Below are positions 395-23,455 of a stretch of DNA of 64,000 bases, in pieces. Position 1 is the first letter of the stretch; each line of letters starts with the position of its first letter. The translations under genes were made by a program, and so were the position numbers. Origin of the DNA: Myxococcota bacterium (GTDB taxonomy: Bacteria > Myxococcota > B64-G9); the NCBI GenBank assembly GCA_041560255.1, contig JBFFBT010000001.1, forward strand, positions 157 to 64,156, read 5' to 3'. The notes under the pieces were generated by a model. That model ran no database searches and was not told the DNA's origin. It worked only from the letters and a program-made list of their open reading frames with translations.

Positions 395-1660
395 CTACTT
401 CTTGGCGCCGCCGGTGGCGTGGCCGTGCAGTTTGACTTCGACTTTTTCTTCCAGGGTGTCGTAGTACTCTTTCAGGATGGCCACAACCTCGGGTTTGGAA
501 AATTCCTTGGGTACTGGTTTGCCTTCGCTCATGAGCTTTCTGAGCATGGTTCCGGATAGCAGCAGCCGGGCTCCGCCTTTGTACTGGCCGTTGTCGTCGA
601 TCTCGGCCTTGCTGTCGTGCGGGCAGGTTTTCATCGATGCCATGGCGCCGCACTCGTAGCAGTAGAAGGTCCAATCCAACGGCAGGGGCTTGAGCTCGAG
701 GGCGCCTTTCGGGATTTGGTGGAAGATCTTCTGCGCATCAAACGGGCCGTAGTAGTCGCCCACACCGGCGTGATCCCTTCCGACGATGAGGTGCGAGCAG
801 CCGTAGTTCTGTCTGAACACCGCGTGCAGCAAAGCCTCCCGGGGGCCGGCGTAGCGCATTTCCATCGGATATCCGCCCTGGATGACTCTTTCCTTGCGGA
901 AGTAGTTGTCGACCAATGCCTGGATGGCTCTTACTCGAGTCTCGGCAGGAATGTCGCCGGGCTTCAGTTTGCCTACCAGTTGGTGGATGTAGACGCCGTC
1001 ACAAACCTCGATGGCGATCCAGGCCAGATAGGCGTGGGAGTTGTGCATGGGGTTTCGAAGCTGCAGCGCGGCCACCGTATCCCATCCACGCTCCTCGAAG
1101 ATCTTGCGGGCTTCGGCCGGACGTTGGTAAATTTCTTTAAACATCTCGGGGTAGTACGATTCGGAAAGCACCTTGACGGGTCCTGCCAGGTTCACGTCGG
1201 CCTGCGACATGACTTTTTGTACGCCCGGGTGGTTTTCATCGGTGGTGGTGAACACTTGCTTGCATTCGTGGGCTTTGTCGATGGTGTACTTTTCGGTTAC
1301 TTTCATGGTGCCCATGATGGCTTCGGTTTCGGTATCCCAGAGGGCGACTTCCTCGTTCTCTTTGATCGAGTCGGCCAGCGCCTTGTCGGCCGATAGGGTG
1401 ATGGGGATGGGCCAAAACAGATTGTTCATGGTCGGCATCGCCATGTTGTCGCAGACGCCTTTCCAATCTTTGCTGCCCATGAATCCATCGAGGGGTGTAA
1501 ATGCGCCGATGCCCAACATGATGAGGTCGGAGGCTTCCCGGGTCGTCATGGGAACCTTTTTGAGTTTTTCCGCTCTCTTGAGCTCGTCGGCTCTTTCTTT
1601 TCCTTCGAGCAAAAGGGGTTTGAGCTCTTTGCTGCCGTGCGGGTTTACCAAATTGCTCAT
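395..1660 (-). CDS. sat: sulfate adenylyltransferase (ATP sulfurylase)
   Basis: Protein begins [20 protein letters not shown] and aligns along its length to dissimilatory Sat ([20 protein letters not shown], HxxH region). Strong SD (GGAGGAAAAACC) sits directly upstream of the ATG at 1660. The ORF-track start at 1834 is an upstream in-frame extension without a convincing RBS. Confidence 0.9.
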
Positions 1661-1707
1661 GGTTTTTCCTCCTTCGTTAAGTGATATGGATATGACGTTT
1701 TGTGCTT

Positions 1708-2814
1708 CTACGATTTGATGGTCATCCTCTCGTGAACCATTGCGAGCGTTCGATAGATGAGGTGTGCAAACTTTGAAAATGGAAACGTAACGAACAAGCT
1801 CAATACCGATGTCAAATGTAAGATGTAGATCCAACTGGCGAGCTCGGGATGCATCAGGTAACGTCCGACTTCGGTCAAAACGCCGGTGATCACCACCATC
1901 AAAACCACCGACAGAAAAAAATTGTCGTAGGCCGTGGCGTTGCCGGCGGGTTTATCCTGGCGCAAGCGATTTTGCAGCACCATGAAGCCACCGACCACCA
2001 GAAACACGGCCGCCACGTTGCCGATGATCTTGAACGGATGCCAAAACGGCAAGGGCAATTCTTCCATCAGAATATACATGGCCACAATGATGAAGGCGGA
2101 AGCCACGGCCGCCAACACAAAGCCCCAAAGCAGCGCAAAGTGGCCCCATTTGCGGGATTTGGCCGTGTCACATTTTCCGAAACGCCCGTGAAAAGCAATA
2201 TCCATGAGAACCGGTATCAGGCTGCCGATAAAAGAACCCTGACGGGGTTTGTCACGACCGATTTGGTTCCAGAATTTGATTGCTCCGGCTCCCGCGGTAA
2301 TGAGGATAAACCCGGTTACGCTGAAAAATACCGCATAAATGAGCCAGTGCGGCACCAGGCGATCATACACCAGCGGTGATTCCGGAATGGTCAAACCATT
2401 TACGGCATACAGGGCCGCCACCCAGAAAAGAAAAGGTATGCCCAGAAGAATCGGCCAAGTTGATTTGGCGTTTCCCACCAACTTTCCCAAGAAACCCGGC
2501 ACGGCGAGTCTTTCGACCGCAAGCGAACGCGCTGCTTGGAGGATGTCTCCAGGTCTGGCGTCCCGCGGGCAATGGGTTGTGCAATCGTTACACTGGTGGC
2601 AAAGCCATAATCCGGGATCGGAAGCCATCCGATCCGAAAGCCCCCATTGGGACCAGAGCATTTGGCGTCTCGGAAAAGGTTGTTCTTCAGGGGCGAGCTT
2701 GCAGACACTGCAACAGGTGGCACACTGAAAACACCTTGTCACCGGAGCCCCGCCGCGATCGTGTAATTTTTTCCGCCATTCGGAAGAGGGAACAATTTCA
2801 AGATGCGAGGCCAT
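1708..2814 (-). CDS. qmoC: quinone-interacting membrane-bound oxidoreductase subunit C (HdrC-like ferredoxin fused to HdrE-like heme-b membrane domain)
   Basis: N-terminal CxxCxxC FeS motifs ([22 protein letters not shown]) are followed by about 6 TM helices. It sits immediately downstream of qmoAB. SD is CAGGAGGAAT before the ATG at 2814. Confidence 0.85.
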
Positions 2815-2842
2815 GTATAATTCCTCCTGTTGAGATCACGTA

Positions 2843-5083
2843 TTAGAATCCCTTATACGGGTTGGGACCCACTTGTTCAATGGTTTCGGCGAAAGCATCG
2901 AGCAACTCCGGGATTCTGTGAAACTCGTTGTGTGACAGCTCGTGGACTTGCACGCGCTCGGACTCCAATGTCAACCTGTCCAGGGTCTCCTGCACGTTGG
3001 TCATCCGGGTTTTGGCGAGCTCAGAGCCGCGGATGTAATGGCATTGGTAATCGTCGCCACTCTTGCATCCGATTAAAATGACACCGTCGATGCCCCGGGA
3101 CAACGAATCTGCGATCCATACTGTATTGACCGCGCCCAAACAACGCACCGGGATGATACGAATCCACGGGTTCCATTGCATGCGTCGGCCGGCTGCCTGA
3201 TCGAGCGCGGGGATCGCGTCATTTTCGCATAACAATGCAATCATTCTGGGCTTTTCTTCATCTTCTTCCGGCACTTCGATAGCTTTTATCATACTGGCGA
3301 CGCTGTCGACCGAATACTCAGGGAACGAAATGATGCGCTCCGGACAAGCCCCCAGACAAATGCCGCATCGCCGGCACCGAAGGGGAAAATACTCCGGGGT
3401 GCCTTTCTTGTCTTCGTTGAGTGTCCCGAAGGGGCATTCCTCGGTGCAGCGTTTGCATTGCGTACAGCGCTGCAAAAAGAAACTCGCGATGGAGGTATCG
3501 CCCGCCCGCGGGTGCACCGCCATACCATGGGTGTTGGCTTCGATGCACTGGACGGCTTTCATGGCCGCACCCCAACCGTCTTCGGATGCCTGGGCGGCGT
3601 CCATGGGCGCTCTGAGGGTGCCGGCTGCATAGATACCCGTCCGCCGGGTCTCGTAAGGAAAGCAGATGTAATGCGAGTCCGGAAATGAGTAAGAAAGCAC
3701 TGGCATATCGGGACCTTGCCTGTAATGCAGGTTCAAAATCTCGGTGCCTTCGTGATGGATGTTCTTGGCTTCGATTTTCTTGGCTTCTTCCACCTGGGTG
3801 GCAGATTCGTTTTTGTTGATCCGCACCCGGGCGTCTTGAAGCTCTCGGATGGCTTCTCCGTCGGCTGATACCGGGACCATACCGGTGGCCAGCACCACCA
3901 TGTCGGCCTCCAGGGAGACTTGCTCTCCCAGTAGGCTGTTTTGCATTTGAATCCGTAGCTTGTCGCCGTCCAGGGTCTCGACACTTTCGACTTCGCCGCG
4001 GGTAAACATGCAACCGGTTTTCTCCTGCACACTCGCGTAAAAATGCTCGAGCTGGCCCGGAGCGCGAAAATCCCGGTACATGACGGCGCATTCCACTTGT
4101 GGGTGGCTGGCATGCAGGGTCGCCACTTGCTTGAGTGTAGTTGCACAGCATTCACCGGAGCAATAGCGCAAGTGTTTTTCATCCCGGGAGCCGGCGCATT
4201 GTATAAAAACCACTCTGCCCGGAAGGGGGGTTTTCAGACCTCCCTGAGACATGAGGTCTTCGAGCTCATGCGAAGTGATGACCCGGGGTGATTTTCCGTA
4301 TCCCAAATGAGACAGCTTGTCGGCGTCATAGGGTTTGGCTCCGGTTGCTTGGATGACGGCGCCGGCCTTGAAGTTTTCTTCACCGGAGGCGGTTTGCACC
4401 ACAACATCAAATTGACCCGGTTGACCTTGGATGGATTTGATTTTCGATCCTTTGAAAATCTTGATGGTCTTATGATCTTCGACTTCGGCGACGATGTCAG
4501 CCAGATTGTTGGGATGCGGGCTGTCGTATGGGGGTTTTTCCGGGACCAGGGTTTTGACTCGATTGAGATAACCTCCCAATTTGGCTTGTTTTTCCACCAA
4601 AACCACGGGATGTCCCATGCCTGCTGCAGCCCTGGCGGCTTGTAAACCGGCAAGTCCTGCTCCTACGACCAACACGGTTCGGTCGATGGTCTCTTGGGAT
4701 GCAGCCGGAAGCTCGTTTTTGGCGATACGCGCCAAACCCATCTTGAGGAGATCTTCGGCCAGCATCTGCGTATCTTCGTCGTTGGGTTTGTGGGTCCAGG
4801 CGACTTGTTCCCGCAGGCACACTCTCTCCATCGAGATTTTTAGCGGATTCACTCGAAACTCTTCGGTTTTCTCCCGGTGCGAGCAAGCGGCGATACACAG
4901 ACCGTTCAGGCCGTCGTTTTCGACGGCATTGTGTATTAAATTGATACCTTCCTCAGAGCACAGGCAAGGATGGTTCGCGAAAAACTTCGCGCCGCGTTCC
5001 TTGGCCAGCTCTTCGATGTTTTCGGTATTGATGGCTGCGCCGATCTCACAACCGGTACACAGGAACAATCCAACCTTGTCCAT
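2843..5083 (-). CDS. qmoB: quinone-interacting membrane-bound oxidoreductase subunit B (HdrA-like flavoprotein with MvhD-like C-terminus)
   Basis: Contains an FAD-binding GxGxxG (VLVVGAGLAGLQAARAA), multiple Cys clusters, a C-terminal MvhD-like domain, and an HdrA-type insertion. About 746 aa, typical of QmoB. The start overlaps the qmoA stop (GTGATG). Confidence 0.85.
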   Translation of the reverse strand: MDKVGLFLCTGCEIGAAINTENIEELAKERGAKFFANHPCLCSEEGINLIHNAVENDGLNGLCIAACSHREKTEEFRVNPLKISMERVCLREQVAWTHKPNDEDTQMLAEDLLKMGLARIAKNELPAASQETIDRTVLVVGAGLAGLQAARAAAGMGHPVVLVEKQAKLGGYLNRVKTLVPEKPPYDSPHPNNLADIVAEVEDHKTIKIFKGSKIKSIQGQPGQFDVVVQTASGEENFKAGAVIQATGAKPYDADKLSHLGYGKSPRVITSHELEDLMSQGGLKTPLPGRVVFIQCAGSRDEKHLRYCSGECCATTLKQVATLHASHPQVECAVMYRDFRAPGQLEHFYASVQEKTGCMFTRGEVESVETLDGDKLRIQMQNSLLGEQVSLEADMVVLATGMVPVSADGEAIRELQDARVRINKNESATQVEEAKKIEAKNIHHEGTEILNLHYRQGPDMPVLSYSFPDSHYICFPYETRRTGIYAAGTLRAPMDAAQASEDGWGAAMKAVQCIEANTHGMAVHPRAGDTSIASFFLQRCTQCKRCTEECPFGTLNEDKKGTPEYFPLRCRRCGICLGACPERIISFPEYSVDSVASMIKAIEVPEEDEEKPRMIALLCENDAIPALDQAAGRRMQWNPWIRIIPVRCLGAVNTVWIADSLSRGIDGVILIGCKSGDDYQCHYIRGSELAKTRMTNVQETLDRLTLESERVQVHELSHNEFHRIPELLDAFAETIEQVGPNPYKGF

Positions 5084-6345
5084 CACAAACCTCCTTGAGA
5101 ACCTTGGGCAACACAGGCTTTGGCAGCAGCCCCGGTTGCGTCTCTCACAGATGCGGCCACATCCTCAGGTCTTCTGGTCACGCCCGCGACGAAGATCTTT
5201 TTATCCGGATTGTCCAATCCGAAGCCATCAGAATCTTTTGGAAGATCGAAAACCTTCATATCGTCCTTGAGGTTGGGCACCATGCCGGTAGCCAACACAA
5301 CCAAGTCGGCGTCGGCCTCAATCAATTTTCCGGCTTCGACGTCTTCGACTTTCAACTTGAGAGAGTTGTTTTGGGTCTCGATTGCCCCCACTTTACCTTT
5401 GATCATCTTAACGCCTTCCATACCGGCGACTTTCAACAGCAGGTCTTCATTGCGGCCGGGTGTTCGGCGATCAATGTAATAGATGGTTACTTCGCTTTCG
5501 GGGATTTGCTCGCGTACATACGTGGCTTGTTTGAGAGATGCCAGGCAACATACCCCCGAGCAGTAAGGCAAATGGTTGACGTCCCGGGAGCCTGCGCACT
5601 GCACAAAGGCCACTTTTTTAGGAGGCTGTCCGTCTGAAGGTCTCAGGATTTTTCCTGCGGTGGGTCCCGCTTTGACTGCCAACCTCTCCATGTGGGCGTT
5701 CGATATGACATCCGAGAGCTTTCCCGCTCCCAAGTTGGTGAGGTTTTGGAGCGGATAGGGTTTCCATCCGGTTGCCACGACTACGGCCGAGACCGCCAAA
5801 GTCTCCTCGGTCGGTTGGGCGTTGAGATCCACGGCATTGTACTTGCAAGCACCTGCGACGGCGTCAAGATCGGATTGCGGGCAGGCTGCTTTGTCCAGTA
5901 CATACTGTTTGGGCCAGGCATCCTTGTGGTACAATCTGGCCGCTGGGACTTGGCTTAGACCCAGGTTGACCGGATCAGGCACTTTAGTGGTACACACCTT
6001 TTCGCATTCTCCACAAGCCGTACAGTTGTCGTTGATGTACTGTGGCTTGCGGGTTAATGTTACCTGCCAGCCTTGAGCGTCGGCCGACGCTTTTGTAACT
6101 TGAGTCTGTGTCAGCACGCGAATGCGCGGGTTGCGCTCGATTCTTTTGATGTTGATCTCCATCCCACAGGTGGGAGGGCAGAGCTTGGGGAAGTATTGGA
6201 AGTTGCGCACGACCCGCCCTCCGATGGAAGGCTCGCTTTCGAGCAAGATTACTTCCCGGCCGGCCTCGGCTGCCTCAATAGCGGCGGTAACTCCGGCGAT
6301 GCCCGCGCCCACGACCAAAAGCGGGTGTTTTGCGGTTGCATTCAT
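5083..6345 (-). CDS. qmoA: quinone-interacting membrane-bound oxidoreductase subunit A (HdrA-like flavoprotein)
   Basis: Contains MNATAKHPLLVVGAGIAGVTAAIEAAEAG (FAD GxGxxG) and HdrA-like Cys motifs. About 420 aa. SD is GAGGAGAGAACC before the ATG at 6345. The ORF-track start at 6423 is an unlikely upstream extension. Confidence 0.85.
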   Translation of the reverse strand: MNATAKHPLLVVGAGIAGVTAAIEAAEAGREVILLESEPSIGGRVVRNFQYFPKLCPPTCGMEINIKRIERNPRIRVLTQTQVTKASADAQGWQVTLTRKPQYINDNCTACGECEKVCTTKVPDPVNLGLSQVPAARLYHKDAWPKQYVLDKAACPQSDLDAVAGACKYNAVDLNAQPTEETLAVSAVVVATGWKPYPLQNLTNLGAGKLSDVISNAHMERLAVKAGPTAGKILRPSDGQPPKKVAFVQCAGSRDVNHLPYCSGVCCLASLKQATYVREQIPESEVTIYYIDRRTPGRNEDLLLKVAGMEGVKMIKGKVGAIETQNNSLKLKVEDVEAGKLIEADADLVVLATGMVPNLKDDMKVFDLPKDSDGFGLDNPDKKIFVAGVTRRPEDVAASVRDATGAAAKACVAQGSQGGL

Positions 6346-7151
6346 GGTTCTCTCCTCGTTTTGGTGGAGGCGGGGTTGCGCGCCACCAAAGTGGGTTCTG
6401 CAAATAGGGCGAAACGCAACCAACGAAAGGCAAATTGAAGCAAGGCCGTATCGTCGGTGCGCATTTTTTCAATGATTTCCGGTTCGAGATCAAACCTGTC
6501 CAAAAAACTCGATTCGAAGACAAATTGGCGAAACTTGTCCAAGTTGTAGCAAGCCATATGGAACATTTCGATGCGTTTTGGATCCAGTTGACGCCCGCCG
6601 ATGAACCAGGGATGTGACACGATTTCGGTATATCCGGATTCGATTTCTTCCTGCTCGGGTACTTTCTGGTTGTTACGGTAACTCTCCACCGTCCAAGTCT
6701 GTTTTTCAGCATGACCCCGGCAAAAAGAATCCTGAAAGAGAAAATAGAGCGGTTTGGGGGTTTCACCTGCACGAGCCGGGGGGATCGCCATCCCCAGCGG
6801 ATACATGCGACACGACCAAGGTCTGCTGTCGTAGACCGTGCAGCCGTCTTCGCCGACGAACGGACAGGTTTTTTTCTCGTTGTCGCTCATGCGTAACAGT
6901 ACCACCGGCAAGTGGAGATCTTTGGTAATGGGCATCAGTGTGTGTCGATCCAAAAAGCTGTCGGTGGATAGGCCCACTCGTCTCGATAAGCGCAGCACAT
7001 CCAAGGGAGTCAGAAAGATATTGATGTCCGCACAGCAATCGGTAAAGCAGGGTATTTTAGAATGACATGCAAAACAAAAGGATTCGTCGGGCTTGACTTG
7101 CTTTTTATCTCTCAACGCGTAGGGGAGCGTATTTGGTTTATTATCGGTCAT
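6342..7151 (-). CDS. YkgJ/UPF0153-family CxxCxxCC putative Fe/Zn-binding protein, translationally coupled to qmoA
   Basis: Motif FCFACHSKIPCFTDCC (CxxCx5Cx3CC) is typical of the PF03692 family. There is a 4-bp overlap with the qmoA start. SD-like GAAGGA lies upstream. Confidence 0.6.
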   Translation of the reverse strand: MTDNKPNTLPYALRDKKQVKPDESFCFACHSKIPCFTDCCADINIFLTPLDVLRLSRRVGLSTDSFLDRHTLMPITKDLHLPVVLLRMSDNEKKTCPFVGEDGCTVYDSRPWSCRMYPLGMAIPPARAGETPKPLYFLFQDSFCRGHAEKQTWTVESYRNNQKVPEQEEIESGYTEIVSHPWFIGGRQLDPKRIEMFHMACYNLDKFRQFVFESSFLDRFDLEPEIIEKMRTDDTALLQFAFRWLRFALFAEPTLVARNPASTKTRREP

Positions 7152-7161
7152 GGCGTATCAG

Positions 7162-7452
7162 CTATCCTTCGTCTTCCAGGAGACGGTCAATGATTGCGGT
7201 TTCCGACCATACCGGCAAGGGCGAAGAGCTTTTTGTGTCCGGATTTGTCACCCTGTAACGATAGGACGCTTTGAGCTTGTACTTTTCCCACATCCAATCC
7301 CAGCCTTGTTGGTAATATGAACAGTTGTTGTTGAAACAGGCCCACTGAGGGGTTTGATCCCATCCCGTACCATCCGGCATCTCGAAGGCTTTGAGAGGGT
7401 GATGACAATGTGGGCAAGTAAGATCTACACTATTTGGTTTTAACGTTTGCAT
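7162..7452 (-). CDS. small Trp-rich Cys4 (zinc-ribbon-like) hypothetical protein between aprA and qmoA
   Basis: 96-aa ORF with CPHC ... CFNNNC. Sits in the same orientation between aprA and the YkgJ-like gene. Weak RBS. No family recognised. Confidence 0.45.
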   Translation of the reverse strand: MQTLKPNSVDLTCPHCHHPLKAFEMPDGTGWDQTPQWACFNNNCSYYQQGWDWMWEKYKLKASYRYRVTNPDTKSSSPLPVWSETAIIDRLLEDEG

Positions 7453-7466
7453 CGGCTCAATGTGAA

Positions 7467-7545
7467 CAAACCCCAGACACCCGAAAGGTATCTGGGGTTT
7501 GTTCTGGTGCCTCCATTCAACGAGCGCCTAAAGAGGCGCTGGTTT
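7467..7545 (-). terminator. two stem-loops in the 100-nt aprA-downstream spacer (candidate partial terminator / RNA-stabilising structure)
   Basis: First: 15-bp inverted repeat caaaccccagacacc / ggtatctggggtttg (7467-7501), loop cgaaa. Second: agcgcc-taaaga-ggcgct (7523-7540). No clean U-tract, so partial termination or a processing site is more likely than a strong terminator. Confidence 0.4.
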
Positions 7546-7553
7546 CTCTACAA

Positions 7554-9425
7554 TTAGAAGATCTTCTTGACGGGAATCTTTTTCAGTTCCCATTCTTCGG
7601 TTTTGGGATCGATCCGGCAGTTGACAAACACGTTCCAGTTGTCGTTGTCCATCTTGGGCTTGTCGGAGCGGAAATAGTATCCCGGCCACCGGGTTTCTTC
7701 CCTGTACAGCATCGATCGCACATGGGCTTCGGCCTGATACATGCGGTGTGTGTTTTCCCAGCAGCGCATCAAGTCGTGCAGATCGGTGGCGGCCAATTTT
7801 TGGCTGTCTTCTTTCAACAGGGTCAGAAGCTCCAAGGCTTTTTCGAGGTTTTTCTGAGATGTCGTAAATTGAGCGGTCACACCGCCGGCATACTCGTCCA
7901 TGCACTTTTGCAGCCGCTGCATAAACGGGCGCCACAGGATGTAGTTCGGGTTGACGTCGATCTGGGTGGTCTTGTCTTTGTTTTCTTCGAACGTCTTGAG
8001 CGGCTGTAGAGCTTCTTCCTTGAGCTTTTCGATCTCGGCGCTGTTGTAGTTGTAGTTCGGTTTTTCTTTCAAGATGTAGCGGATGGCTGCCTTGCCTGCG
8101 ATTCGACCTTCGGCGTGGGAGCCGGAGGAGAACTTGTGGCTGGAAGCGCCCGATGCATCGCCGGCGCAGAACATGCCCTTTATGGTGGACATGTTGTCAT
8201 AACCCCAGAAATATTCAGGCGGGGAGATGTCTTCGGAGCCGCTGACCCAAGCGCCCGACGCGCCCGAATGAGAGCCGATGAAATACGGCTCGGCGGCGGC
8301 GATCTCGGAAGCTTTTTCTTCCGGCTGAATATCGCTGGCTGCCCACAGGATGGCTTGGGAGATGGTCATATCCAAGAAATCTTCCCATGCTTCGGCTTCG
8401 AGCTCTTTCAGTTTCTTTTTGGCGGCTTTCTCGTCGCCCGCGCTCTCGGCGATCTTTTTGATGGCTTCTTCGGTGCGCATATAGATGGGAGCTTTGCCTT
8501 CCATCACGTCCAACATCATGAGGTAGTTTCTCAGGTTGGCAGGCACCGGTTTCACCAGGCCGTAAGGGGCCCAGTTTTCGAGCTCGGGCTTGCGGGTTTC
8601 CATGTAGGACTCGCCGAGCGCGTTGGTCGCACGGGATTTGAACAACAAGAACCACGCACCCACCGGACCGTAAGCGTCTTTGAACCGCACCGGAATGAAG
8701 CGGACTTCCTGGCAGGTCATCTCGGCGCCGGCTTTGAGGGTAAAGTAGGCCGAGGCACCCGAGTTGAAAGGAGGATACCATGCACGGCCCGCGCCTTCGC
8801 CGGAAGACCGCGGCTTGAACACGCCGACAGCTCCGCCCATGCTTACCAGGGTGGCTTTCGCTTTGAAAATGTAAAATTTGTTTTCACGGATGGAAAATCC
8901 GATCGCTCCGGAGCACTTGTCGCCATCCAACAAGGGACCGGTGATGAAAACACGCTCATAGATGTTTTCGGTGCCCAACGCGTTTTTGGCCGCTTCGGCA
9001 ACGACGACTTTGTAAGATTCGCCGTTGATCATCAGCTGCCAGCGTCCTTCGTGGACATAGTTGCCTTCTTTGTCTTTCCAGATCGGCAATCCCCATTTCT
9101 CAAACAAGTGAACGGAGGAATCCACGTGCCGGGCGATGTTGGCAACCAAGTCTTCACGGGTGATGCCCATCAAGTCGTTGCGGACATAATCCACATAATC
9201 TTTGATCGTGTTTTCGCCGTCTTTCAACCCAACGTACTGGTTGATAGCCGAGAGTCCCATTGCTACTGCGCCGGAACGATCCATGGCGGCTTTGTCAACC
9301 AACGTAACCTTCAGTCCGTTCTTCTTTGCCCAGTAAGCGGCTTCCCCAGCGGCGCCGCAGGCCGCCATACCGCCACCGAGGATAAGAAGATCAGTTGTGA
9401 CCTCTACGGTTTCGAAGTTAGCCAT
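7554..9425 (-). CDS. aprA: adenylylsulfate (APS) reductase alpha subunit
   Basis: MANFETVEVTTDLLILGGGMAACGAAGEAAYWA (FAD site) shows end-to-end similarity to AprA. Strong SD AAGGGAGGAGACAGAT before the ATG at 9425. The upstream extension to 9455 would overlap aprB. Confidence 0.9.
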   Translation of the reverse strand: MANFETVEVTTDLLILGGGMAACGAAGEAAYWAKKNGLKVTLVDKAAMDRSGAVAMGLSAINQYVGLKDGENTIKDYVDYVRNDLMGITREDLVANIARHVDSSVHLFEKWGLPIWKDKEGNYVHEGRWQLMINGESYKVVVAEAAKNALGTENIYERVFITGPLLDGDKCSGAIGFSIRENKFYIFKAKATLVSMGGAVGVFKPRSSGEGAGRAWYPPFNSGASAYFTLKAGAEMTCQEVRFIPVRFKDAYGPVGAWFLLFKSRATNALGESYMETRKPELENWAPYGLVKPVPANLRNYLMMLDVMEGKAPIYMRTEEAIKKIAESAGDEKAAKKKLKELEAEAWEDFLDMTISQAILWAASDIQPEEKASEIAAAEPYFIGSHSGASGAWVSGSEDISPPEYFWGYDNMSTIKGMFCAGDASGASSHKFSSGSHAEGRIAGKAAIRYILKEKPNYNYNSAEIEKLKEEALQPLKTFEENKDKTTQIDVNPNYILWRPFMQRLQKCMDEYAGGVTAQFTTSQKNLEKALELLTLLKEDSQKLAATDLHDLMRCWENTHRMYQAEAHVRSMLYREETRWPGYYFRSDKPKMDNDNWNVFVNCRIDPKTEEWELKKIPVKKIF

Positions 9426-9439
9426 ATCTGTCTCCTCCC

Positions 9440-9877
9440 TTACTTCTTGGTCCATACTTCAGGTGTTCCACAAGATGCCGGTTCGGTATACAGAGCAGGA
9501 CTGTTGATATCCGGCTCGTTGGCCCAACCGCCCGCAGGCTCCGCTTTGCCTTCCGGGGTTGTACGGATGGGGAACTTGAAGCGTTTCACTTGGCCACTGC
9601 GGAATTTCACCGTCCACATGATGTTGTCGGTCGAGCGCATGGGTACGACGGAAGCGCCCATGGGGACGAAATCGGCGTAACCGCGCACATCGACAGCCTG
9701 GGTCGGGCAAATCTTGACACAGTTGTAGCATTCCCAGCATTGGGAAGGATCGCGGTTGAAAGCCTTCATCTTGTCCTTGTCGAGAACCATCAAATCATTG
9801 GGACAGATGTACTGGCAGGCGGTCTTGTCGAGCGCCTTGCACCCGTCACACTTATCCGGGTTTACAAAACTTGGCAT
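9440..9877 (-). CDS. aprB: adenylylsulfate reductase beta subunit (2x[4Fe-4S])
   Basis: MPSFVNPDKCDGCKALDKTACQYICPNDLM ... CWECYNCVKICP ... KRFKFPIRTTPEG is a textbook AprB. SD is CCAAGGAGGTGACGA. Confidence 0.9.
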   Translation of the reverse strand: MPSFVNPDKCDGCKALDKTACQYICPNDLMVLDKDKMKAFNRDPSQCWECYNCVKICPTQAVDVRGYADFVPMGASVVPMRSTDNIMWTVKFRSGQVKRFKFPIRTTPEGKAEPAGGWANEPDINSPALYTEPASCGTPEVWTKK

Positions 9878-10116: not shown

Positions 10117-11061
10117 TTATATTTCCAGGCAACCTTTCCAGCGCGAGGCCTGCAGGTGAAGCTCCTCGACAAATGCTGCAGTGGCCCGATTGGTTTCAAA
10201 TTGTTTCCATGTAACCAAAGCGATACGGCGAAACAGCGGCGGACCCACTTCGATGCGTGCAAGCCGGCCGAGCGGTTTGTTTTCCTTCCCACAGGCCACA
10301 TCTGGGCTGGTTACCATGTCGGGTAAAAAGGCGACTCCCAGGCCTACCTGCACCATTTTCTTTACCGTCTCTACATTATCGGTCGAGACGACCGGCTCTA
10401 CGCTCACGCCCATCCGGGCCAAATGCTCTTGGATCAGCTTACCGGTCGGATTCTCGGAGGACAGGGATACAAACTGCAGTCCCTTGAGCTCGCTGGGTCG
10501 GATTCGCTGGCGGCTGAAAAAAGGATGTGATCTTCCGCAGACCAAAGAGACTTTTTCCTCGATGATGTTTTCCTGGCGCAATCTACGGTCCGAGCGCGGA
10601 TTGGCCACCAATGCCATATCGATCCGATCCGAAAGCAGCGCATCGATGATCTCGTTCGAATGACGGTACAAAACCATGGGCCGAATGTCTGTGAACCTTT
10701 CGCGCATGCTCCATAGTATTTGGGGTAAGAAATAGATGCCCACGCTGTTGACGGTACCTATACGGATTTCTCCAGTGACACCGTCGGTCATCTCTTCGAC
10801 CGATCTTCGGGCCTTACGCACCATTTCCATGATATCGCGTGCGTATTGCGCCAATACCCGGCCGGACGAGGTCGCGCTCACTCCACTGGGCCTACGGTTG
10901 AGAAGACAGGTACCCAACTCTTCTTCAAGTTGTTTGATTTGATAGGAAAGCGCCGGTTGGGTTATTCGCAGTCGGGTGGTGGCCCGGTTGAAACCACCCT
11001 CTTCGACTACCGCTAAAAAACAACGTAATTGATGTAATTCCACGTGTCCGTCCTTGTTCAT
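10117..11061 (-). CDS. LysR-family transcriptional regulator
   Basis: N-terminal HTH VELHQLRCFLAVVEEGGFNRATTRLRITQPALSYQIKQLEEELG, followed by a LysR substrate-binding domain. The start is likely the ATG at 11061 (MNKDGH...). ATG 11103 and TTG 11106 are alternatives. Confidence 0.8.
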   Translation of the reverse strand: MNKDGHVELHQLRCFLAVVEEGGFNRATTRLRITQPALSYQIKQLEEELGTCLLNRRPSGVSATSSGRVLAQYARDIMEMVRKARRSVEEMTDGVTGEIRIGTVNSVGIYFLPQILWSMRERFTDIRPMVLYRHSNEIIDALLSDRIDMALVANPRSDRRLRQENIIEEKVSLVCGRSHPFFSRQRIRPSELKGLQFVSLSSENPTGKLIQEHLARMGVSVEPVVSTDNVETVKKMVQVGLGVAFLPDMVTSPDVACGKENKPLGRLARIEVGPPLFRRIALVTWKQFETNRATAAFVEELHLQASRWKGCLEI

Positions 11062-11495
11062 GCATCCGGTTTCGTATACCGGCGGATTAAATCGGTCGCT
11101 CATCAAAGTTATCTATAAGGAGCCACCAAAATAGTTTATACATAACTGCCATAATTTAATGAGTTGTCAAGGAATTTCGGAATCAATTGTAAAAAAGACG
11201 TCTTTTTTTTAAAATATATTTAAATGTTTTTCATTAATATAATTACGACAGAACGGCATTTTTATGAATTCATGAATGTTCTTTCCCCTCGATCTGTGCT
11301 CTTTCGGGACATATCAATTTGGTTTATCCCTATGATATAAATTTTATCTTTGACATCGACCTCTTTAAATGGAATAGATTTGTGCTCACAGCGAGGCCCG
11401 TATATTTGAATTATAAAAAGTGCTTATTTATCAAAGAGTTGCAGTAAACCTTGTTTGTGAAGTCTCATCAAATTGCAGCGGCGAAAGGAGCTATC
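11062..11495. promoter_or_regulatory. AT-rich divergent promoter region between LysR gene and dsrA
   Basis: About 430 bp of low-GC non-coding sequence (runs of A/T, TTTAAATGTTTTTCATTAATATAATTA) lies between divergent genes. It is the expected location of the dsrABD promoter and of LysR autoregulation sites. Confidence 0.5.
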
Positions 11496-12677
11496 ATGGT
11501 CAAGTTGAGAGAAACACCCAAAGTGGATGAATTGCTAAAAGGTCCATGGCCGAGCTTCGTGAAGGAGATTAAAAAAAGTGCGGTATCGAAACCAGCTGCG
11601 AACGATTTGCTCGGCGTGCTGGAACGCTCCTACACTGAAAGAATCGGCCACTGGAAACACGGCGGTATCGTGGGGGTCATGGGATATGGCGGAGGAGTTA
11701 TCGGGCGGTACAACGATCTCCCCGAAGAGTTCCCGGACGTAGCCCATTTTCATACCATCCGAGTCAATCAACCCGCCGGTTGGTTCTACACTTCCGATAC
11801 CATCCGCAAAGTATGCGATATTTGGGATAAGTATGGTTCGGGCATCACCAATATGCATGGATCCACCGGAGATATGGTGCTTTTGGGATGCAATACGGAT
11901 GCCTTGGAGCCGATCTTTTCGGAGCTGACCGCCATCGGATACGACTTGGGCGGATCGGGTTCGGACTTGCGGACCCCCAGCTGTTGCTGTGGCGAGGCCA
12001 GATGCGAGTGGGCATGTTATGACACCATGGCGCTGACCCACGAATTGACGATGCATTTTCAGGATGAGCTCCACCGGCCGGCTTTTCCGTATAAATACAA
12101 AATCAAATCCGCAGGTTGTCCCAACGACTGTGTGGCCTCCATTGCGCGGGCGGATATGTCGATTATCGGAACCTGGCGTGACGGCATCCAGATGGACCAA
12201 GCGGAAGTCGCGAAATACGCATCGGCCGGCGCGTTTGACATGCAGAAGGATGTTGTCGATCGTTGCCCGACCAAGTGCATGAGCTGGGACGGTAAAAAGC
12301 TTGCCATTGACAACGAGAATTGTGTCAAATGTATGCATTGTATCAATGTCATGCCCAAGGCGCTCGCTCCCGGAAAAGACCGCGGTGCAGCGATCCTCAT
12401 CGGAGCCAAGGCTCCCATCATCGGTGGTGCTTTGTTGTCTTCGGTCGTCGTGCCGTTTTTGAAGATCGAAGAGCCTTATGAGGATGTCAAGGAGCTGTGT
12501 GAGGCCATCTGGGATCTTTGGGGTGAGCACGGTAAAAATCGTGAGCGTGTGGGTGAGTTTATTCAGCGCATCGGCATGGGGAACTTCCTCGAGCAAATCG
12601 GCCTGGAGCCGATTCCCGAGATGGTTGTGCATCCTCGCACCAATCCATATATTTTCTTTGAACTCGGAGAGGAATAA
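11496..12677 (+). CDS. dsrA: dissimilatory sulfite reductase alpha subunit
   Basis: [22 protein letters not shown], siroheme/FeS Cys motifs ([20 protein letters not shown]), and the ferredoxin insert [12 protein letters not shown]. Strong SD AAAGGAGCTATC before the ATG at 11496. Confidence 0.92.
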
Positions 12678-12725
12678 CAGAATCGTCATTGAGTAAAACG
12701 ACTCGAATAAACGGAGGATATTCAC

Positions 12726-13808
12726 ATGCCAGTCGCGAAAGACAGAAAAACCGATATCGGCCCCCCTCATTATGAAAATTTCTTGCCGCCGGTCATTAAA
12801 AAGAATTACGGCAAGTGGAAGTACCACGAGATTGTCAAGCCCGGCGTGTTGATGCATGTCGGTGAGTCGGGTGACAAGCTTTGGTCCGTAAGGGCCGCTA
12901 CCCCCAGGCTTGCCAGCATTGAAACCCTGCGTCTTTTTGCGGACATCGCAGATGAGTTTGCAGACGGCTACATGCGCTGGACCAGCCGCAACAATATTGA
13001 GTTTTTGATCTCTGACGGGTCCAAGGTCGATCCGTGTATCGCCAAGCTGAAAAAAGAAGGTTATCCGGTCGGTGGAATCGGTCCGTCCATTACCAACATC
13101 GTGCATACCCAAGGATGGGTTCATTGTCACTCGGCCGCCACCGATGCTTCCGGTGTGGTCAAGGCCATCATGGATGACTTGTTCCCCTATTTCGAGGACA
13201 TGAAACTCCCTGGAAAGCTCCGGATCGCTTTTGCCTGTTGTCTGAATATGTGCGGTGCGGTGCATTGTTCGGACATCGCGGTATTGGGCGTACATCGAAG
13301 GGCTCCCGATATCAAACATGATCTCATGGCGAAGCAGTGCGAGATTCCTTCTACTGTCGCTGCATGTCCGACCGGCGCGATCCGGCCCAAGACAATAGAC
13401 GGGCATCAATCCGTCGAGGTTATTCAAGAGCAGTGCATGTATTGCGCCAACTGCTATACCGTATGTCCGGCCATGACCCTCAACGATCCCAATACGGACG
13501 GAATATCGATTTGGGTGGGTGGCAAGGTCAGCCAGGCACGTCACGAGCCCATGTTCTCCAAGTTGGCTATTCCTTTTATCCCCAACAATCCTCCCCGCTG
13601 GCCCGAAGTGGTCACGGCGGTCAAGAAGATTGTCGAAGTGTATGCCGCCAACGCGCGCCCATTCGAGCGCATGGGTGAATGGATCGAGCGGGTAGGTTGG
13701 CCGAAGTTCTTCGAGCTGACCGATATTCCGTTTACAAAGTATCATATTGATGACTTCACGCATGCAGGAGAGACGTTCAAACGTTCCATCCATTTCCGGC
13801 AGCGGTAG
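12726..13808 (+). CDS. dsrB: dissimilatory sulfite reductase beta subunit
   Basis: [57 protein letters not shown] align closely with DsrB. Confidence 0.92.
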
Positions 13809-13817
13809 GAGAAGGTT

Positions 13818-14051
13818 ATGGAAAGTGTCGAAAAAGTAGCCGAAGCGATGTACCAGATGGTCAAGGAATATCATGGCAAGAAAAACCTCAAGGCTCTCGA
13901 CCTCACCAAAGCCATGATCGAGAAATACGGAGAGGACAACTGCGATAAAAAGTTGTGTAAGCAGGCCATCCGGCAGTTGATCGATTCCGGGCGTTGTACG
14001 TATTCGTATGTTGGTGGAAGCTATATCGTTCTTCCGCCGGACAGCAAGTAA
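13818..14051 (+). CDS. dsrD: DsrD (small winged-helix protein of reductive dsr operons)
   Basis: 77 aa, sited immediately after dsrB. Carries the conserved C-terminal YSY..GG motif (CTYSYVGGSYIVLPP). Confidence 0.85.
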   Translation: MESVEKVAEAMYQMVKEYHGKKNLKALDLTKAMIEKYGEDNCDKKLCKQAIRQLIDSGRCTYSYVGGSYIVLPPDSK

Positions 14052-14228: not shown

Positions 14229-15911
14229 ATGGCGCTACTGAAAAAAAAGGCAAGTAAACCTCTAGTGGTAAGAGGGACCGGAGGAGGGGGTGGATCGGTA
14301 TCTTCTCTCCGACCCAACCAGGTCATGAAGGCGGTTCCTTGTGTAACAAACTGTCCCAGCGGCAATCAGATTCGATTGTGGGTCGGTACGATCGCCCAAA
14401 GGGACAAAGCCGGGCTCGGCGAGGAAGAAGCCTACCAGCGTGCCTGGCAGATATTGGTCTCGACCAACCCATTCCCGGCAGTCATGGGCCGGGTGTGCCC
14501 CCATCCGTGTGAGCCGAATTGCAACCGGGAAGCCAAAGACGGGGCCGTAGCCATCAATGCGGTTGAGCGTTTCATCGGGGATTGGGCCATCGAAAAAAAG
14601 CTGTCTTTGAGCAAGCTGCCCGATGTCGAGCCGAAATCCGACTCCATCGGAGTGATCGGGGCAGGACCCGCGGGGCTTTCTTTCGCGTATCAGATGGCGC
14701 GGCGGGGTTATCCGGTTACAGTGTATGAAAAAACCAGCAAGGCCGGCGGAATGTTGTTGTGGGGTATCCCGTTCTACCGCCTGCCGGAAGCTGTGTTGGA
14801 GGCCGAAATTCGGCGTATCCTCGACCTGGGCGTGGAGCTGAAACTGAACACGACGGTGGGCAAGGATATCAAAGTTGCCGATCTCAAAGCCAAGCATAAG
14901 CTGCTTTTCCTCGGGATTGGCGCCGACAAGGGTAGACTCATGCGCATTCCGGGTGAGGAAGGCGGCAATGTATGGACCGGCACGGATTATCTTTTCAGGG
15001 TCAACAACGGCGAAAAGGTGGATGTGGGCAAGCAGGTAGTGGTTATCGGAGGAGGCGACACGGCCATTGACGCCGCGCGCGCGGCTCGCAGAGCCGGGGC
15101 CGAGGTGACCATACTCTATCGTCGTACCCGGGATGAAATGCCCGCCATCGACAGTGAGATCGAAGACGCACTAAAAGAAAAAGTGAAAATCGAGTACCTG
15201 GCGGCTCCCTTGGAAGTGAAACGCTCGGACGGTAAGGTCGCGGCTCTGGTGGTGCAGAAAATGGAGCTCGGAGAACCGGATTCGTCCGGTAGGCGCAGGC
15301 CTGTACCGATTGAAGGCTCCACCTACGAGGTGGCTGCCGATACGATCGTTGCGGCGATTTCACAGGAGCCGAATTGGGATCCGTTGGAAGGTTTACGGCC
15401 CGATGAAAAGTGGCTCAAGGCGGATAAGCATGGCAAGGTGCGTGATGGTTTGTATACGGGTGGAGATGCGTTGACCCTGGGTCTTGCGACCATCGCGATC
15501 GGTCAGGGCAGAGCCGCCGCCGAGGCTGCGCACGCCGAATTGCAAGGTCAGCAGCCGTCGCGCAAGCCCGAGCTTCCGGTCATTACCAAAGATAAGATGC
15601 GTTTGGATCTTTATGATCCCAAAGAGAGAACCAAAAGAGCACACCGGCCGGCCGAGGAGTGGCTTTCCAAACCCAATGACGAAATCGATTTGGGTATCGA
15701 CAACCAGCAGTTTTTGGAAGAAGTCGGGCGTTGTTTCTCTTGCGGCCTGTGTTTTGGGTGTGAACGTTGTTGGATGTTTTGCACGCCGTCCTGTTTCAAA
15801 AAAGTGGATGGCGCGGGTCCGGGAAATTATTACACCATCAAGTTGGATACCTGTGATGGATGTAAAAAGTGCGCGGACGAATGTCCCTGCGGTTTTTTAG
15901 AAATGGTGTAA
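14229..15911 (+). CDS. dsrL: DsrL-like NAD(P)H:acceptor oxidoreductase (GltD-family iron-sulfur flavoprotein with C-terminal 2x[4Fe-4S] ferredoxin domain)
   Basis: N-terminal GltD-type Cys clusters (CVTNCPSGN, CPHPCEPNC), FAD motif VIGAGPAGLSFAY, NAD(P) motif VVVIGGGDTAIDAAR, and a C-terminal CFSCGLCFGCERC ... CDGCKKCADECPC. This domain order matches DsrL and not NfnB/SudA. Good SD. Confidence 0.6.
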   Translation: MALLKKKASKPLVVRGTGGGGGSVSSLRPNQVMKAVPCVTNCPSGNQIRLWVGTIAQRDKAGLGEEEAYQRAWQILVSTNPFPAVMGRVCPHPCEPNCNREAKDGAVAINAVERFIGDWAIEKKLSLSKLPDVEPKSDSIGVIGAGPAGLSFAYQMARRGYPVTVYEKTSKAGGMLLWGIPFYRLPEAVLEAEIRRILDLGVELKLNTTVGKDIKVADLKAKHKLLFLGIGADKGRLMRIPGEEGGNVWTGTDYLFRVNNGEKVDVGKQVVVIGGGDTAIDAARAARRAGAEVTILYRRTRDEMPAIDSEIEDALKEKVKIEYLAAPLEVKRSDGKVAALVVQKMELGEPDSSGRRRPVPIEGSTYEVAADTIVAAISQEPNWDPLEGLRPDEKWLKADKHGKVRDGLYTGGDALTLGLATIAIGQGRAAAEAAHAELQGQQPSRKPELPVITKDKMRLDLYDPKERTKRAHRPAEEWLSKPNDEIDLGIDNQQFLEEVGRCFSCGLCFGCERCWMFCTPSCFKKVDGAGPGNYYTIKLDTCDGCKKCADECPCGFLEMV

Positions 15912-15923
15912 CCATCGGCTTTT

Positions 15924-18564: not shown

Positions 18565-18578
18565 GAGGAGGAAGTACT

Positions 18579-18896: not shown

Positions 18897-19017
18897 CGGC
18901 GATTGGCTTGATCCGGGACGGGATCCAATCCAATACGGGTTTTCATGGGTATAGCCCGATGGAGTATTGATCCAAAGCCGCGGTGTCTTTCGGTTTTTGA
19001 CCGAAAAGGAGCGTGGT

Positions 19018-19575: not shown

Positions 19576-19596
19576 CGATCAGCGAGGTTAGGTCAT

Positions 19597-20589: not shown

Positions 20590-20591
20590 CC

Positions 20592-22653: not shown

Positions 22654-22656
22654 GCC

Positions 22657-23448: not shown

Positions 23449-23455
23449 GGTCATC

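Follow-up and report, generated by a model that had tools for sequence, protein, structure and literature searches.

Why does an APS-reduction gene cluster hold two small cysteine-rich genes between aprA and qmoA, and do their products belong to the pathway? We saw this arrangement on the minus strand of the window, a 64,000-nt stretch of DNA from a Myxococcota bacterium, where the gene order is aprB, aprA, S96, Ykg, qmoA, qmoB, qmoC, sat. The first two genes encode the subunits of APS reductase: aprB (9440..9877) the beta subunit of 145 aa (PF12139 APS-reductase_C, 123.6 bits, plus Fer4 domains) and aprA (7554..9455) the alpha subunit (TIGR02061, 906 bits against a cut-off of 641.75), 633 aa when read from its first ATG; translation more likely starts at the second one, at 9425. 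Then follow S96 (7162..7452), an ORF for an acidic, Trp-rich protein of 96 aa with four cysteines, and Ykg (6342..7151), encoding a 269-aa YkgJ-family protein (PF03692, 30 bits against a gathering score of 23). The subunits of Qmo, the presumed electron-donor complex of APS reductase, are QmoA (5083..6345; 420 aa, HdrA-like, with Pfam and NCBIfam matches), QmoB (2843..5086; 747 aa, PF02662 FlpD at 134.7 bits with HdrA-like and Fer4 domains) and the membrane subunit QmoC (1708..2814; 368 aa, NF038018 qmoC equivalog, 399.5 bits against a cut-off of 300). The last gene, sat (395..1660), encodes an ATP sulfurylase of 421 aa (PF01747, 275.6 bits, and PF14306).

The aprA-S96 spacer is 101 nt long and the S96-Ykg spacer 10 nt. 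The TGA of Ykg overlaps the ATG of qmoA (ATGA, spacing -4), the qmoB start overlaps the qmoA stop by 4 nt (spacing -4), and 28 nt separate qmoB from qmoC; the qmoC-sat spacer of 47 nt carries the GAAGGAGG ribosome-binding site of sat. The coordinates and features given by the sequence-only reading, including the Ykg stop overlapping the qmoA start and sat lying 47 bp past qmoC, all held when we re-examined the window. A LysR-type regulator gene (10117..11106, minus strand; PF00126 and PF03466), upstream of aprB and divergent from dsrA, presumably controls the apr-qmo-sat cluster; dsrA, dsrB and dsrD (11496..14051) lie on the plus strand, divergent from the whole LysR-apr-qmo-sat unit.

In its six shared genes the window agrees in order, strand and domains (AprA and AprB, a pair of HdrA-like Qmo flavoproteins, QmoC, Sat) with the canonical (sat-)aprBA-qmoABC cluster of model sulfate reducers such as Desulfovibrio and of green sulfur bacteria such as Chlorobaculum (PMC3333476, PMC2211403). 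The window differs from it in the two extra conserved genes between aprA and qmoA, with Ykg predicted from the overlap to be translationally coupled to qmoA.

A survey of synteny around qmoA, suggested together with the sequence-only reading, came out strongly positive. Relatives of Ykg turned up in at least 571 species-representative genomes; we inspected the 80 loci closest to the query, all carried by MAGs. Ykg is followed immediately by qmoA in 77 of these 80 loci, and the ATGA overlap is retained in most; aprA lies upstream of Ykg in 75/80, S96 between the two in 70/80, and sat downstream of qmo in 63/80. The LysR gene is equally placed in 25/80 loci, and a divergent dsrA is found in 30/80. 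Identity among related loci was 67–89% for aprB, 73–85% for aprA and 64–85% for the DsrA/B/D regions. The apr-S96-Ykg-qmo arrangement appeared on independent metagenome contigs as well. Database relatives numbered 32 for S96 (46–68% identity) and 1712 for Ykg; a profile search with S96 gave 246 clusters at 50% identity. Many other genomes thus have the two ORFs, and neither was assigned to an unrelated family by profile searches. In many phyla S96 and Ykg have been inherited along with apr and qmo. The layout, described earlier as non-canonical and as bearing inserted genes, is so only against model sulfate reducers; for uncultured bacteria of a very large clade it is the rule.

The two proteins very probably work in the Apr-Qmo pathway in some capacity. 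One could argue that they are hitchhikers with no part in APS reduction, which an ancestor fixed between aprA and qmoA and which have stayed with the cluster since, as every functional argument rests on association, loss of S96 occurs, and one locus (L006) has 4.6 kb of unrelated genes between S96 and Ykg. We consider this very improbable, since the position is retained under many phylum labels and through four or more different cluster layouts, the Ykg/qmoA stop-start overlap is conserved, a diverged Ykg paralog stands again ahead of a second qmoAB, and purifying selection on S96 and Ykg equals that on the Qmo subunits. Median pairwise dN was 0.278 for both Ykg and QmoA, 0.30 for QmoB, 0.36 for S96 and 0.39 for QmoC; S96 and Ykg are real, conserved genes, about as tightly constrained as the Qmo subunits. 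Correlation of their pairwise-distance matrices with the AprA and QmoA/B/C matrices gave r = 0.62–0.74. Also, the link of Ykg to apr or qmo outlasts rearrangement: it is kept in a Ykg-qmoABC locus without aprBA (L008), in the sat-aprBA-S96-Ykg-qmoC-dsrABD loci without qmoAB (L094/L095) and in the loci of the paralog, Ykg2. S96 is missing with no substitute ORF in 9 of 79 related loci having room for it; therefore, it is not indispensable.

Is the cluster a single operon, as had been proposed? This is uncertain, for two very stable stem-loops (7464..7540, minus strand) lie inside the aprA-S96 spacer. The first is a GC-rich 7-bp hairpin (7540–7523), the second a perfect 19-bp hairpin (7504–7464) ending 11 nt ahead of the S96 start codon. 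The minimum free energy of the spacer is -49.6 kcal/mol (z = -6.13; 0 of 200 shuffles equally stable), and the aprA 3′ spacer is similarly structured (z < -2) in 66 of 72 related loci, including loci that lack S96. Folding of the qmoC-sat spacer did not exceed that of shuffled controls (z = +1.37). The stem-loops are probably an attenuator or an mRNA-stabilising 3′ structure for aprBA. Given their strength here and their recurrence in 66/72 loci, the ‘one operon’ is probably a case of attenuated read-through rather than of uniform co-transcription. Transcription would begin upstream of aprB and only a fraction of transcripts would pass the hairpins; AprBA would then be made in excess, with S96, Ykg, QmoABC and Sat at lower levels, and the Ykg-QmoA translational coupling would fix the ratio of these two proteins.

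The 96-aa protein is indeed a Trp-rich Cys4 protein: the ORF encodes six Trp (6.2%) and cysteines C13, C16, C39 and C44, in a C-x2-C-x22-C-x4-C pattern, after which come a conserved helix and a beta-hairpin (GWDWMWExY..KASYRYRV). The four-cysteine motif is best read as a zinc ribbon. The family alignment has 21 invariant positions, CPHC and CFNxxC among them, and the predicted structure has an AF2 pLDDT of 84.7. A search of S96 against Pfam gave no match at E<=0.01, and a looser cut-off gave sub-threshold matches alone.

One such match brings in a further possibility, that S96 is no structural partner but a small zinc-finger transcription factor of the Ogr/Delta type acting on qmo-sat or on the whole cluster, with Ykg still an accessory protein. 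The cysteine spacing of S96 agrees with that of Ogr/Delta proteins, PF04606 is matched at E <= 1 by 27 of 29 family members (best 2e-8), and S96 lies directly downstream of a terminator-like structure. Nevertheless, the S96 of the window scores 15.8 bits against PF04606, below the gathering score of 26.3; a comparison with 50,697 phage records gave no match, nor did PHROG give an annotated one; and the cluster already has its LysR regulator. The most conserved region of S96 is the Trp-rich helix and hairpin rather than the finger. The family is acidic throughout (medians: pI 5.1, net charge -4, Trp 5.9%), a character better suited to contact with proteins than with DNA. A regulatory role is, on balance, distinctly unlikely. 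The S96 domain also occurs in methyltransferase-S96 fusions, in neighbourhoods unrelated to sulfur metabolism, which indicates that it is a generic module.

Ykg carries the YkgJ/UPF0153 CxxCx5Cx3CC motif as it had been written (C26xxC29x5C35x3C39C40); C26, however, varies within the family and stands outside the conserved set, the eight invariant cysteines being C29, C35, C39, C40, C96, C104, C114 and C144. Its predicted structure has a pLDDT of 84.5 (AF2) and a pTM of 0.83. In a search of NCBIfam, a library that includes a FliB model, Ykg gave nothing at E <= 0.01. FliB, the flagellin lysine-N-methyltransferase of Salmonella (Wang et al. 2021, PMC8598068), is the sole characterised PF03692 protein; its motif binds an O2-sensitive [4Fe-4S] cluster. 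Both proteins have the PF03692 domain and eight conserved cysteines, and the N-terminal C-x4-C-x3-CC of FliB corresponds to the C-x5-C-x3-CC of Ykg; their genomic contexts differ entirely, and similarity is not detectable beyond the domain. By its likeness to FliB (PMC8598068) Ykg is probably an Fe-S protein.

This likeness could be taken further: Ykg might be a FliB-like, [4Fe-4S]/SAM-dependent modifier, e.g. a lysine methylase, acting on a Qmo subunit, AprA or AprB; S96 would then be its targeting or activating zinc-ribbon partner, as Trm112 is for methyltransferases. We think this unlikely, as Ykg matched no NCBIfam model at E <= 0.01, its resemblance to FliB is confined to the Pfam domain, the fusions of a methyltransferase with S96 lie in non-sulfur neighbourhoods, and the structural matches fell below significance.

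Ykg2 is 33–37% identical to Ykg and lies directly upstream of a second, diverged qmoAB-hdrD (L037, L049, L090, L091). The nearest Ykg homologs of cultured Oceanidesulfovibrio, Desulforudis and Thiovibrio are 35–42% identical to Ykg2 and have unrelated neighbourhoods. The CCG domain of HdrB/HdrD (PF02754) is another Cys-rich Fe-S module, with a non-cubane [4Fe-4S] cluster, that partners HdrA-like flavoproteins. Ykg was tried as such a CCG protein and rejected (profile-comparison probability 0.2%; Ykg2 coexists with HdrD). Since the HdrD that follows Ykg2-qmoA2B2 already bears CCG clusters, Ykg is no replacement for it and does not simply fill the place of a missing Fe-S subunit.

We characterized the locus, as its best explanation, as a lineage-specific form of the APS-reduction module, AprBA-S96-Ykg-QmoABC-Sat, with S96 and Ykg as lineage-specific accessory proteins, dedicated to the Apr-Qmo interface, whose function we infer. 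The accessory-factor role first suggested for them is thus partly supported, and through synteny it is the best supported of the readings. As the layout recurs in hundreds of uncultured species, both are promising candidates for parts of the electron pathway that are unexplained. In the work of Ramos et al. 2012 (PMC3333476), contact with AprAB was traced to QmoA among the Qmo subunits, and no electron transfer between purified QmoABC and AprAB was detected; the authors proposed a missing third partner and remarked that the model organisms they surveyed have no partner genes co-localised with the cluster. Our reading of Ykg and S96, if true, bears on that question.

More specifically, we propose that S96 and Ykg are stoichiometric redox or adaptor subunits at the AprBA-Qmo interface, a proposal that we hold tentatively, at somewhat less than an even chance. 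The C29-x5-C35-x3-C39C40 motif of Ykg would hold at least one [4Fe-4S] cluster, like the CX4CX3CC of FliB, and the remaining four cysteines may form a second metal site. Ykg would dock at the QmoA/QmoB flavoprotein part and give electrons on their way between Qmo and AprB an additional iron-sulfur relay or entry point; S96 would be a non-catalytic adaptor steadying this contact, dispensable in some lineages. QmoA itself aligns to the HdrA core alone (240.8 bits; QmoA residues 8–413 to HdrA 142–560), and thus lacks the HdrA terminal regions. On the other side, model sulfate reducers function without S96 and Ykg, and FliB is an enzyme, no electron carrier.

Synteny and Ykg-qmoA coupling would suit equally well a dedicated maturation or repair factor: Ykg, perhaps with S96, could install or repair the Fe-S or flavin cofactors of QmoA, QmoB or AprBA. 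Ykg keeps to aprBA in the absence of qmoAB and to qmoABC in the absence of aprBA, as would be expected of a factor with several clients. Such a factor might be an adaptation of facultatively aerobic Acidobacteriota, Myxococcota, Planctomycetota and Gemmatimonadota that guard an oxygen-sensitive pathway: Ykg carriers are labelled mostly with phyla known for aerobes, an acidobacterium with the APS-reduction pathway alternates between O2 respiration and sulfate reduction (PMC10564751), and the clusters of strictly anaerobic model sulfate reducers have neither gene. The oxygen link, though, is drawn from taxon labels alone, the ATGA overlap and a substitution rate equal to that of QmoA are more typical of complex subunits, and searches of Pfam, NCBIfam and the PDB gave no likeness to known Fe-S or flavin assembly families. 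We consider a maturation factor doubtful, well short of an even chance.

The two genes have partial parallels among known genes. DVU0851, reportedly the promoter-distal gene of the qmoABC operon in D. vulgaris (Zane et al. 2010), encodes a hypothetical protein; it is conserved and uncharacterised too, but lies after qmoC and not before qmoA. A precedent is AprM of the Apr lineage I sulfur oxidisers (PMC2211403), a lineage-specific accessory in the apr locus, always co-transcribed with aprBA and linked to the choice of the AprB redox partner. AprM is membrane-integral and replaces Qmo, whereas S96 and Ykg occur alongside Qmo; a Pfam search gave no membrane-protein domain for either.

Our literature search found no functional study of S96 or Ykg; the genes have probably been drawn before. 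Locus tags of the peatland Acidobacteria MAGs SbA2 and SbA3 (Hausmann et al. 2018, PMC6018796, Fig. 2) leave two to three genes between aprA and qmoA, and such genes were drawn or mentioned as conserved unknowns there and by Thiel 2019 (PMC6338057). The layout of ‘Ca. Thermonerobacter thiotrophicus’ (PMC6338057, Fig. 5) agrees with that of L094/L095, where the two genes are homologs of S96 and Ykg; judging from position and from the acidobacterial loci in our survey, the unknown genes of SbA and Thermonerobacter would be S96 and Ykg. Neither study assigns the genes to families, nor gives their breadth or a function. The window also shares with acidobacterial MAGs (PMC6018796) the co-occurrence of dsrL and dsrD.

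Eight tightly spaced open reading frames were called on the reverse strand of the window between 9877 and 395, and for the six known genes the profile matches were unambiguous: aprB (9877-9440; PF12139, 123.6 bits), aprA (9455-7554; aprA equivalog TIGR02061, 906 bits versus a cut-off of 641.75), qmoA (6345-5083; HdrA-like matches), qmoB (5086-2843; HdrA-like matches and FlpD), qmoC, encoding an HdrC/HdrE-like membrane subunit (2814-1708; NF038018, 399.5 bits versus 300), and sat (1660-395; PF01747 and PF14306). Judging by these matches, aprB and aprA are the genes of dissimilatory APS reductase; the true start of aprA is probably the second ATG, at 9425. The window qmoA is not the immediate neighbour of aprA, as two genes of the same strand lie between them: S96 (7452-7162), a 96-aa ORF without a Pfam match above threshold, and Ykg (7151-6342), a 269-aa ORF matching PF03692 (CxxCxxCC) over residues 31-119 (30 bits versus a gathering score of 23). 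Spacers of 101 nt (aprA-S96), 10 nt (S96-Ykg), 28 nt (qmoB-qmoC) and 47 nt (qmoC-sat) separate the genes; Ykg and qmoA share an ATGA stop/start overlap, and qmoA and qmoB overlap by 4 nt. The sequence-only reading had claimed such an operon, with two Cys-rich genes set between aprBA and qmoABC-sat; its gene order, strand and features agree with the ORF calls and profile matches, and its spacings and stop-start overlap are borne out by the sequence.

The aprBA and qmoABC genes of model sulfate reducers and of green sulfur bacteria are neighbours (PMC3333476; PMC2211403). The arrangement in the window is not a peculiarity of this genome: with each GTDB species represented by a single genome, at least 571 genomes proved to encode a Ykg relative. 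We compared the best 80 of these at least 571 loci, the closest relatives of the query, with the window proteins by tblastn. Among the 80 loci, qmoA directly follows Ykg in 77, aprA is upstream of Ykg in 75 (four of the five exceptions being cut by a contig end), S96 is situated between aprA and Ykg in 70 and sat downstream in 63, while a divergent dsrA is found upstream in 30. Seen from the known genes, aprA and qmoA are separated by both S96 and Ykg in 70 of 80 loci and by Ykg in 79, the exception being locus L008. Thus the survey of small-ORF homologs beside qmoA, proposed as a check on the claim, came out positive. Most loci retain the overlap of the Ykg stop with the qmoA start, and independent metagenome contigs show identical gene order.

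All 80 loci come from MAGs, with labels including Acidobacteriota, Myxococcota/Polyangia, Planctomycetota, Gemmatimonadota, NC10, Riflebacteria and Eisenbacteria; no cultured carrier of an apr-linked Ykg was present among the 80 inspected. The top Ykg matches among those listed were in MAGs labelled Polyangia, Myxococcota or Riflebacteria (66-67% identity). Homologs in the cultured genera Oceanidesulfovibrio, Desulforudis and Thiovibrio are 35-42% identical to Ykg2, a diverged paralog of Ykg, and sit in unrelated neighbourhoods; therefore, the apr/qmo-linked Ykg proteins make a specialised branch of a wider family. S96 and Ykg are real, widespread genes, and the cluster containing them is the standard form that the APS-reduction module takes across a very large clade, most of it uncultured.

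In a word-indexed protein database Ykg had 1712 relatives, named 'YkgJ family cysteine cluster protein' at NCBI, and S96 had 32 (46-68% identity); searched as a profile against 1.84 billion cluster representatives, S96 gave 246 clusters at E ≤ 1e-3. Gene finders often mis-call or shorten S96, which leaves it largely invisible in protein databases, and this under-annotation probably explains the disparity between the two database counts. We saw deposited S96 gene calls (P0001; L086, 1432-1563) that are too short: one, with 72 aa, begins at Met25 and thereby lacks the first CPHC pair, and another has 43 aa.

Four layouts were seen beyond the common one. Eight loci have aprBA-Ykg-qmoABC without S96; together with L008 they account for the 9 of 79 loci with room for S96 in which it is missing, and the spacer of S96-less loci holds no alternative ORF while retaining a terminator-like hairpin. 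In L008 (4198-13433) Ykg-qmoABC stands alone, with neither aprBA nor S96 within 8 kb and with GroES/GroEL, a HAD hydrolase and a lipoprotein-like ORF upstream. Four loci (L037, L049, L090 and L091) have the order aprBA-S96-Ykg1-sat-Ykg2-qmoA2-qmoB2-hdrD; here Ykg2, full-length and 33-37% identical, is directly upstream of a second qmoA-qmoB whose products are only ∼46% identical to the window QmoAB, and the third subunit is HdrD-like with two CCG domains (Ykg2-qmoAB-hdrD regions: L037, 9171-13439; L049, 10100-15604; L090, 7001-12446; L091, 1563-7016). Finally, L094/L095 (1103-10282) have sat-aprBA-S96-Ykg-qmoC-dsrABD, with qmoAB absent from the locus (identity to the window: S96 38%, Ykg 46%). 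Judging from these layouts, Ykg accompanies qmo where qmo is separated from apr, remains beside aprBA and S96 where qmoAB is elsewhere, and is duplicated where a second Qmo type is present. Such rearrangements fit better with a role of Ykg at the Apr-Qmo interface than with a role involving a single partner. In one Polyangia MAG (L006, 3373-8001) we also observed ∼4.6 kb of unrelated genes between S96 and Ykg, among them a thioredoxin-like protein, an FGE-sulfatase fragment and several ORFs without family match.

The median pairwise dN of Ykg, 0.278, equals that of QmoA, and the value for S96, 0.36, falls between QmoB (0.30) and QmoC (0.39); S96 and Ykg also correlate with the Apr and Qmo proteins in their pairwise distance matrices (r = 0.62-0.74). 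With matching dN and correlated matrices, the S96/Ykg/Apr/Qmo block evolves as a unit. The dN/dS ratios were 0.14-0.39 and, as dS is near saturation, serve for gene-to-gene comparison only. One could speculate that S96 and Ykg are hitchhiking genes with no part in APS reduction; next to the synteny and the shared evolution of the block, we consider this highly improbable.

The 101-nt aprA-S96 spacer contains two hairpins (7464-7540, reverse strand), one with a perfect 19-bp stem, and folds with a minimum free energy of -49.6 kcal/mol (z = -6.1). Since the second hairpin ends 11 nt from the S96 start codon, no space for a promoter is left before S96; a sigma-70 scan found no promoter-like site between aprA and S96, and its sole find upstream of aprB was a perfect -35 hexamer lacking a good -10. 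Of 72 related loci, 66 have a significantly structured spacer at this point, S96-less loci among them. Between qmoC and sat, by contrast, the spacer shows no structure and has a strong ribosome-binding site. An Rfam search of the window matched no known RNA family. A single promoter upstream of aprB is the most economical explanation, with attenuated read-through or with 3′ stabilisation of an abundant aprBA message. The stem-loops are likely to be an attenuator or an mRNA-stabilising element setting the AprBA:Qmo ratio, so that the qmo-side genes downstream of them would be made at a lower level than AprBA.

Eight cysteines of Ykg are invariant in 31 sequences (C29, C35, C39, C40, C96, C104, C114 and C144). 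The N-terminal spacing is C-x5-C-x3-CC as opposed to the C-x2-C-x2-CC of the family name; of the CxxCx5Cx3CC motif read earlier from the sequence, C29, C35, C39 and C40 proved invariant, while C26 is variable in the family and is no conserved part of it. The AlphaFold2 model (pLDDT 84.5, pTM 0.83) has a Cys-rich mixed alpha/beta N-terminal half and a helical C-terminal half. Only one PF03692 protein has been characterised, FliB, which methylates lysines of Salmonella flagellin; it has eight conserved cysteines, and its N-terminal CX4CX3CC binds an oxygen-sensitive [4Fe-4S] cluster (PMC8598068). By analogy with FliB, Ykg probably binds at least one [4Fe-4S] cluster. One could go further and suppose that Ykg is a FliB-like modifying enzyme, sharing with FliB the Cys-rich domain; however, the likeness between the two is confined to PF03692, full-length similarity being absent, and the NCBIfam library, which holds a FliB model, had no model matching Ykg at E ≤ 0.01 (nor one matching S96), so that this alternative appears improbable. 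A CCG (HdrB-type) domain, making Ykg a substitute for HdrB, was considered and rejected: hhalign gave a probability of 0.2% against the HdrD of L049, PF02754 did not match, and Ykg2 coexists with HdrD.

In S96, 21 positions are invariant, including CPHC and CFNxxC, the best-conserved stretch being GWDWMWExY..KASYRYRV. In the model (pLDDT 84.7) a helix and a beta-hairpin come after a zinc ribbon. The four cysteines, invariant in the family, are arranged as C13-x2-C16-x22-C39-x4-C44, which is the canonical spacing of the Ogr/Delta finger, and 27 of 29 family members match PF04606 (Ogr/Delta) weakly at E ≤ 1 (best 2e-8). S96 might thus be a regulator; yet the window protein scores 15.8 bits with PF04606, below the gathering score of 26.3, no meaningful phage homolog was found in PHROGs or by tblastn against phages, and the family is acidic (median pI 5.1, net charge -4), which speaks against DNA binding. 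We regard the regulator alternative as distinctly improbable. To go by composition, the acidity and the Trp content (5.9%) are more in keeping with an adaptor that binds protein than with an activator that binds DNA. In distant proteins of its family, the S96 domain occurs in fusion with a class I SAM methyltransferase or a HisKA fragment. The methyltransferase fusions (∼350 aa; L098 and L101-L104, e.g. L098, 6001-7062) look like an uncharacterised methyltransferase family with a modular zinc ribbon. The fusions are real, but no sulfur-metabolism genes occur in their neighbourhoods; hence the S96 domain is a generic module, and a methyltransferase link was dropped as having little bearing on the apr-linked clade.

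The electron route to APS reductase is one of the puzzles of dissimilatory sulfate reduction. Ramos et al. 2012 found that contact with AprAB is made by QmoA, detected no electron transfer with purified QmoABC and AprAB, proposed a missing third partner and electron confurcation, and remarked that partner genes do not co-localise with the cluster (PMC3333476). No Qmo structure was present in the PDB copy searched; QmoA aligns to HdrA residues 142-560 of ∼650 only and so is without the HdrA terminal regions. Two or three genes separate aprA and qmoA in the locus tags of Hausmann et al. 2018 (PMC6018796), and Thiel et al. 2019 placed 'two conserved hypothetical genes' between aprA and qmoC in 'Ca. 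Thermonerobacter thiotrophicus' (PMC6338057), an arrangement matching L094/L095. By their position, the genes in both reports are probably S96 and Ykg. In the literature searched 'YkgJ' was never combined with sulfate reduction, nor were the two families named or a function for these genes proposed.

The sequence-only reading had taken the inserted proteins for assembly or electron-transfer accessory factors, which is reasonable. That they act in the Apr-Qmo pathway at all we hold to be very probable. Synteny, conservation and one distant characterised homolog give best support to Ykg and S96 as accessory proteins at the Apr-Qmo interface, where Ykg would be an iron-sulfur protein produced in a fixed ratio with QmoA and S96 a dispensable zinc-ribbon adaptor; the specific subunit or relay reading is possible, with somewhat less than an even chance. 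A dedicated maturation or repair factor, which the synteny and translational coupling would fit as well, seems rather unlikely. In the fullest form of the proposal, which we judge unlikely as a whole, Ykg, assisted by S96, would be the long-sought 'third partner' of QmoABC-AprBA among the sulfate reducers and sulfur oxidisers of a major clade, most of it uncultured: an extra iron-sulfur module on QmoA bridging to AprB or admitting a second low-potential donor, enabling menaquinol-driven APS reduction (confurcation) or its reversal, and encoded in the cluster, unlike in model organisms. Two conserved, tightly coupled, Cys-rich proteins between aprA and qmoA in hundreds of species offer something concrete and clonable that may be the missing component, or else a dedicated maturation system, and thereby a candidate for filling a long-standing gap in sulfate-reduction bioenergetics. 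The carriers are uncultured; they belong to Acidobacteriota, Myxococcota, Planctomycetota and other groups, which now account for a large share of the known dsrAB-bearing diversity and may use the pathway both ways.

Upstream of aprB the window has a gene for a LysR-type regulator (11106-10117, reverse strand), with dsrA, dsrB and dsrD divergent; this gene thus lies between dsrABD and aprBA, and 25 of the 80 related loci have a LysR-type gene in the equivalent place. The adjacent spacer (11107-11495) is AT-rich (35% GC) and is a probable divergent promoter region. Downstream of dsrD, on the forward strand (14229-24613), we observed a dsrL-like gene (Pyr_redox_2 and Fer4_20), a dsrN-like amidase gene and DsrM/K/O/P-family matches. 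The window has both dsrD and a dsrL-like gene; DsrL together with DsrD is reported for peatland Acidobacteria, which may operate the pathway in both directions. Further along, a 799-aa ORF (28220-30619, forward strand) matches Cys-rich extracellular domains typical of eukaryotes (Stig1, Xlink, C-type lectin), which is unusual on a bacterial contig.
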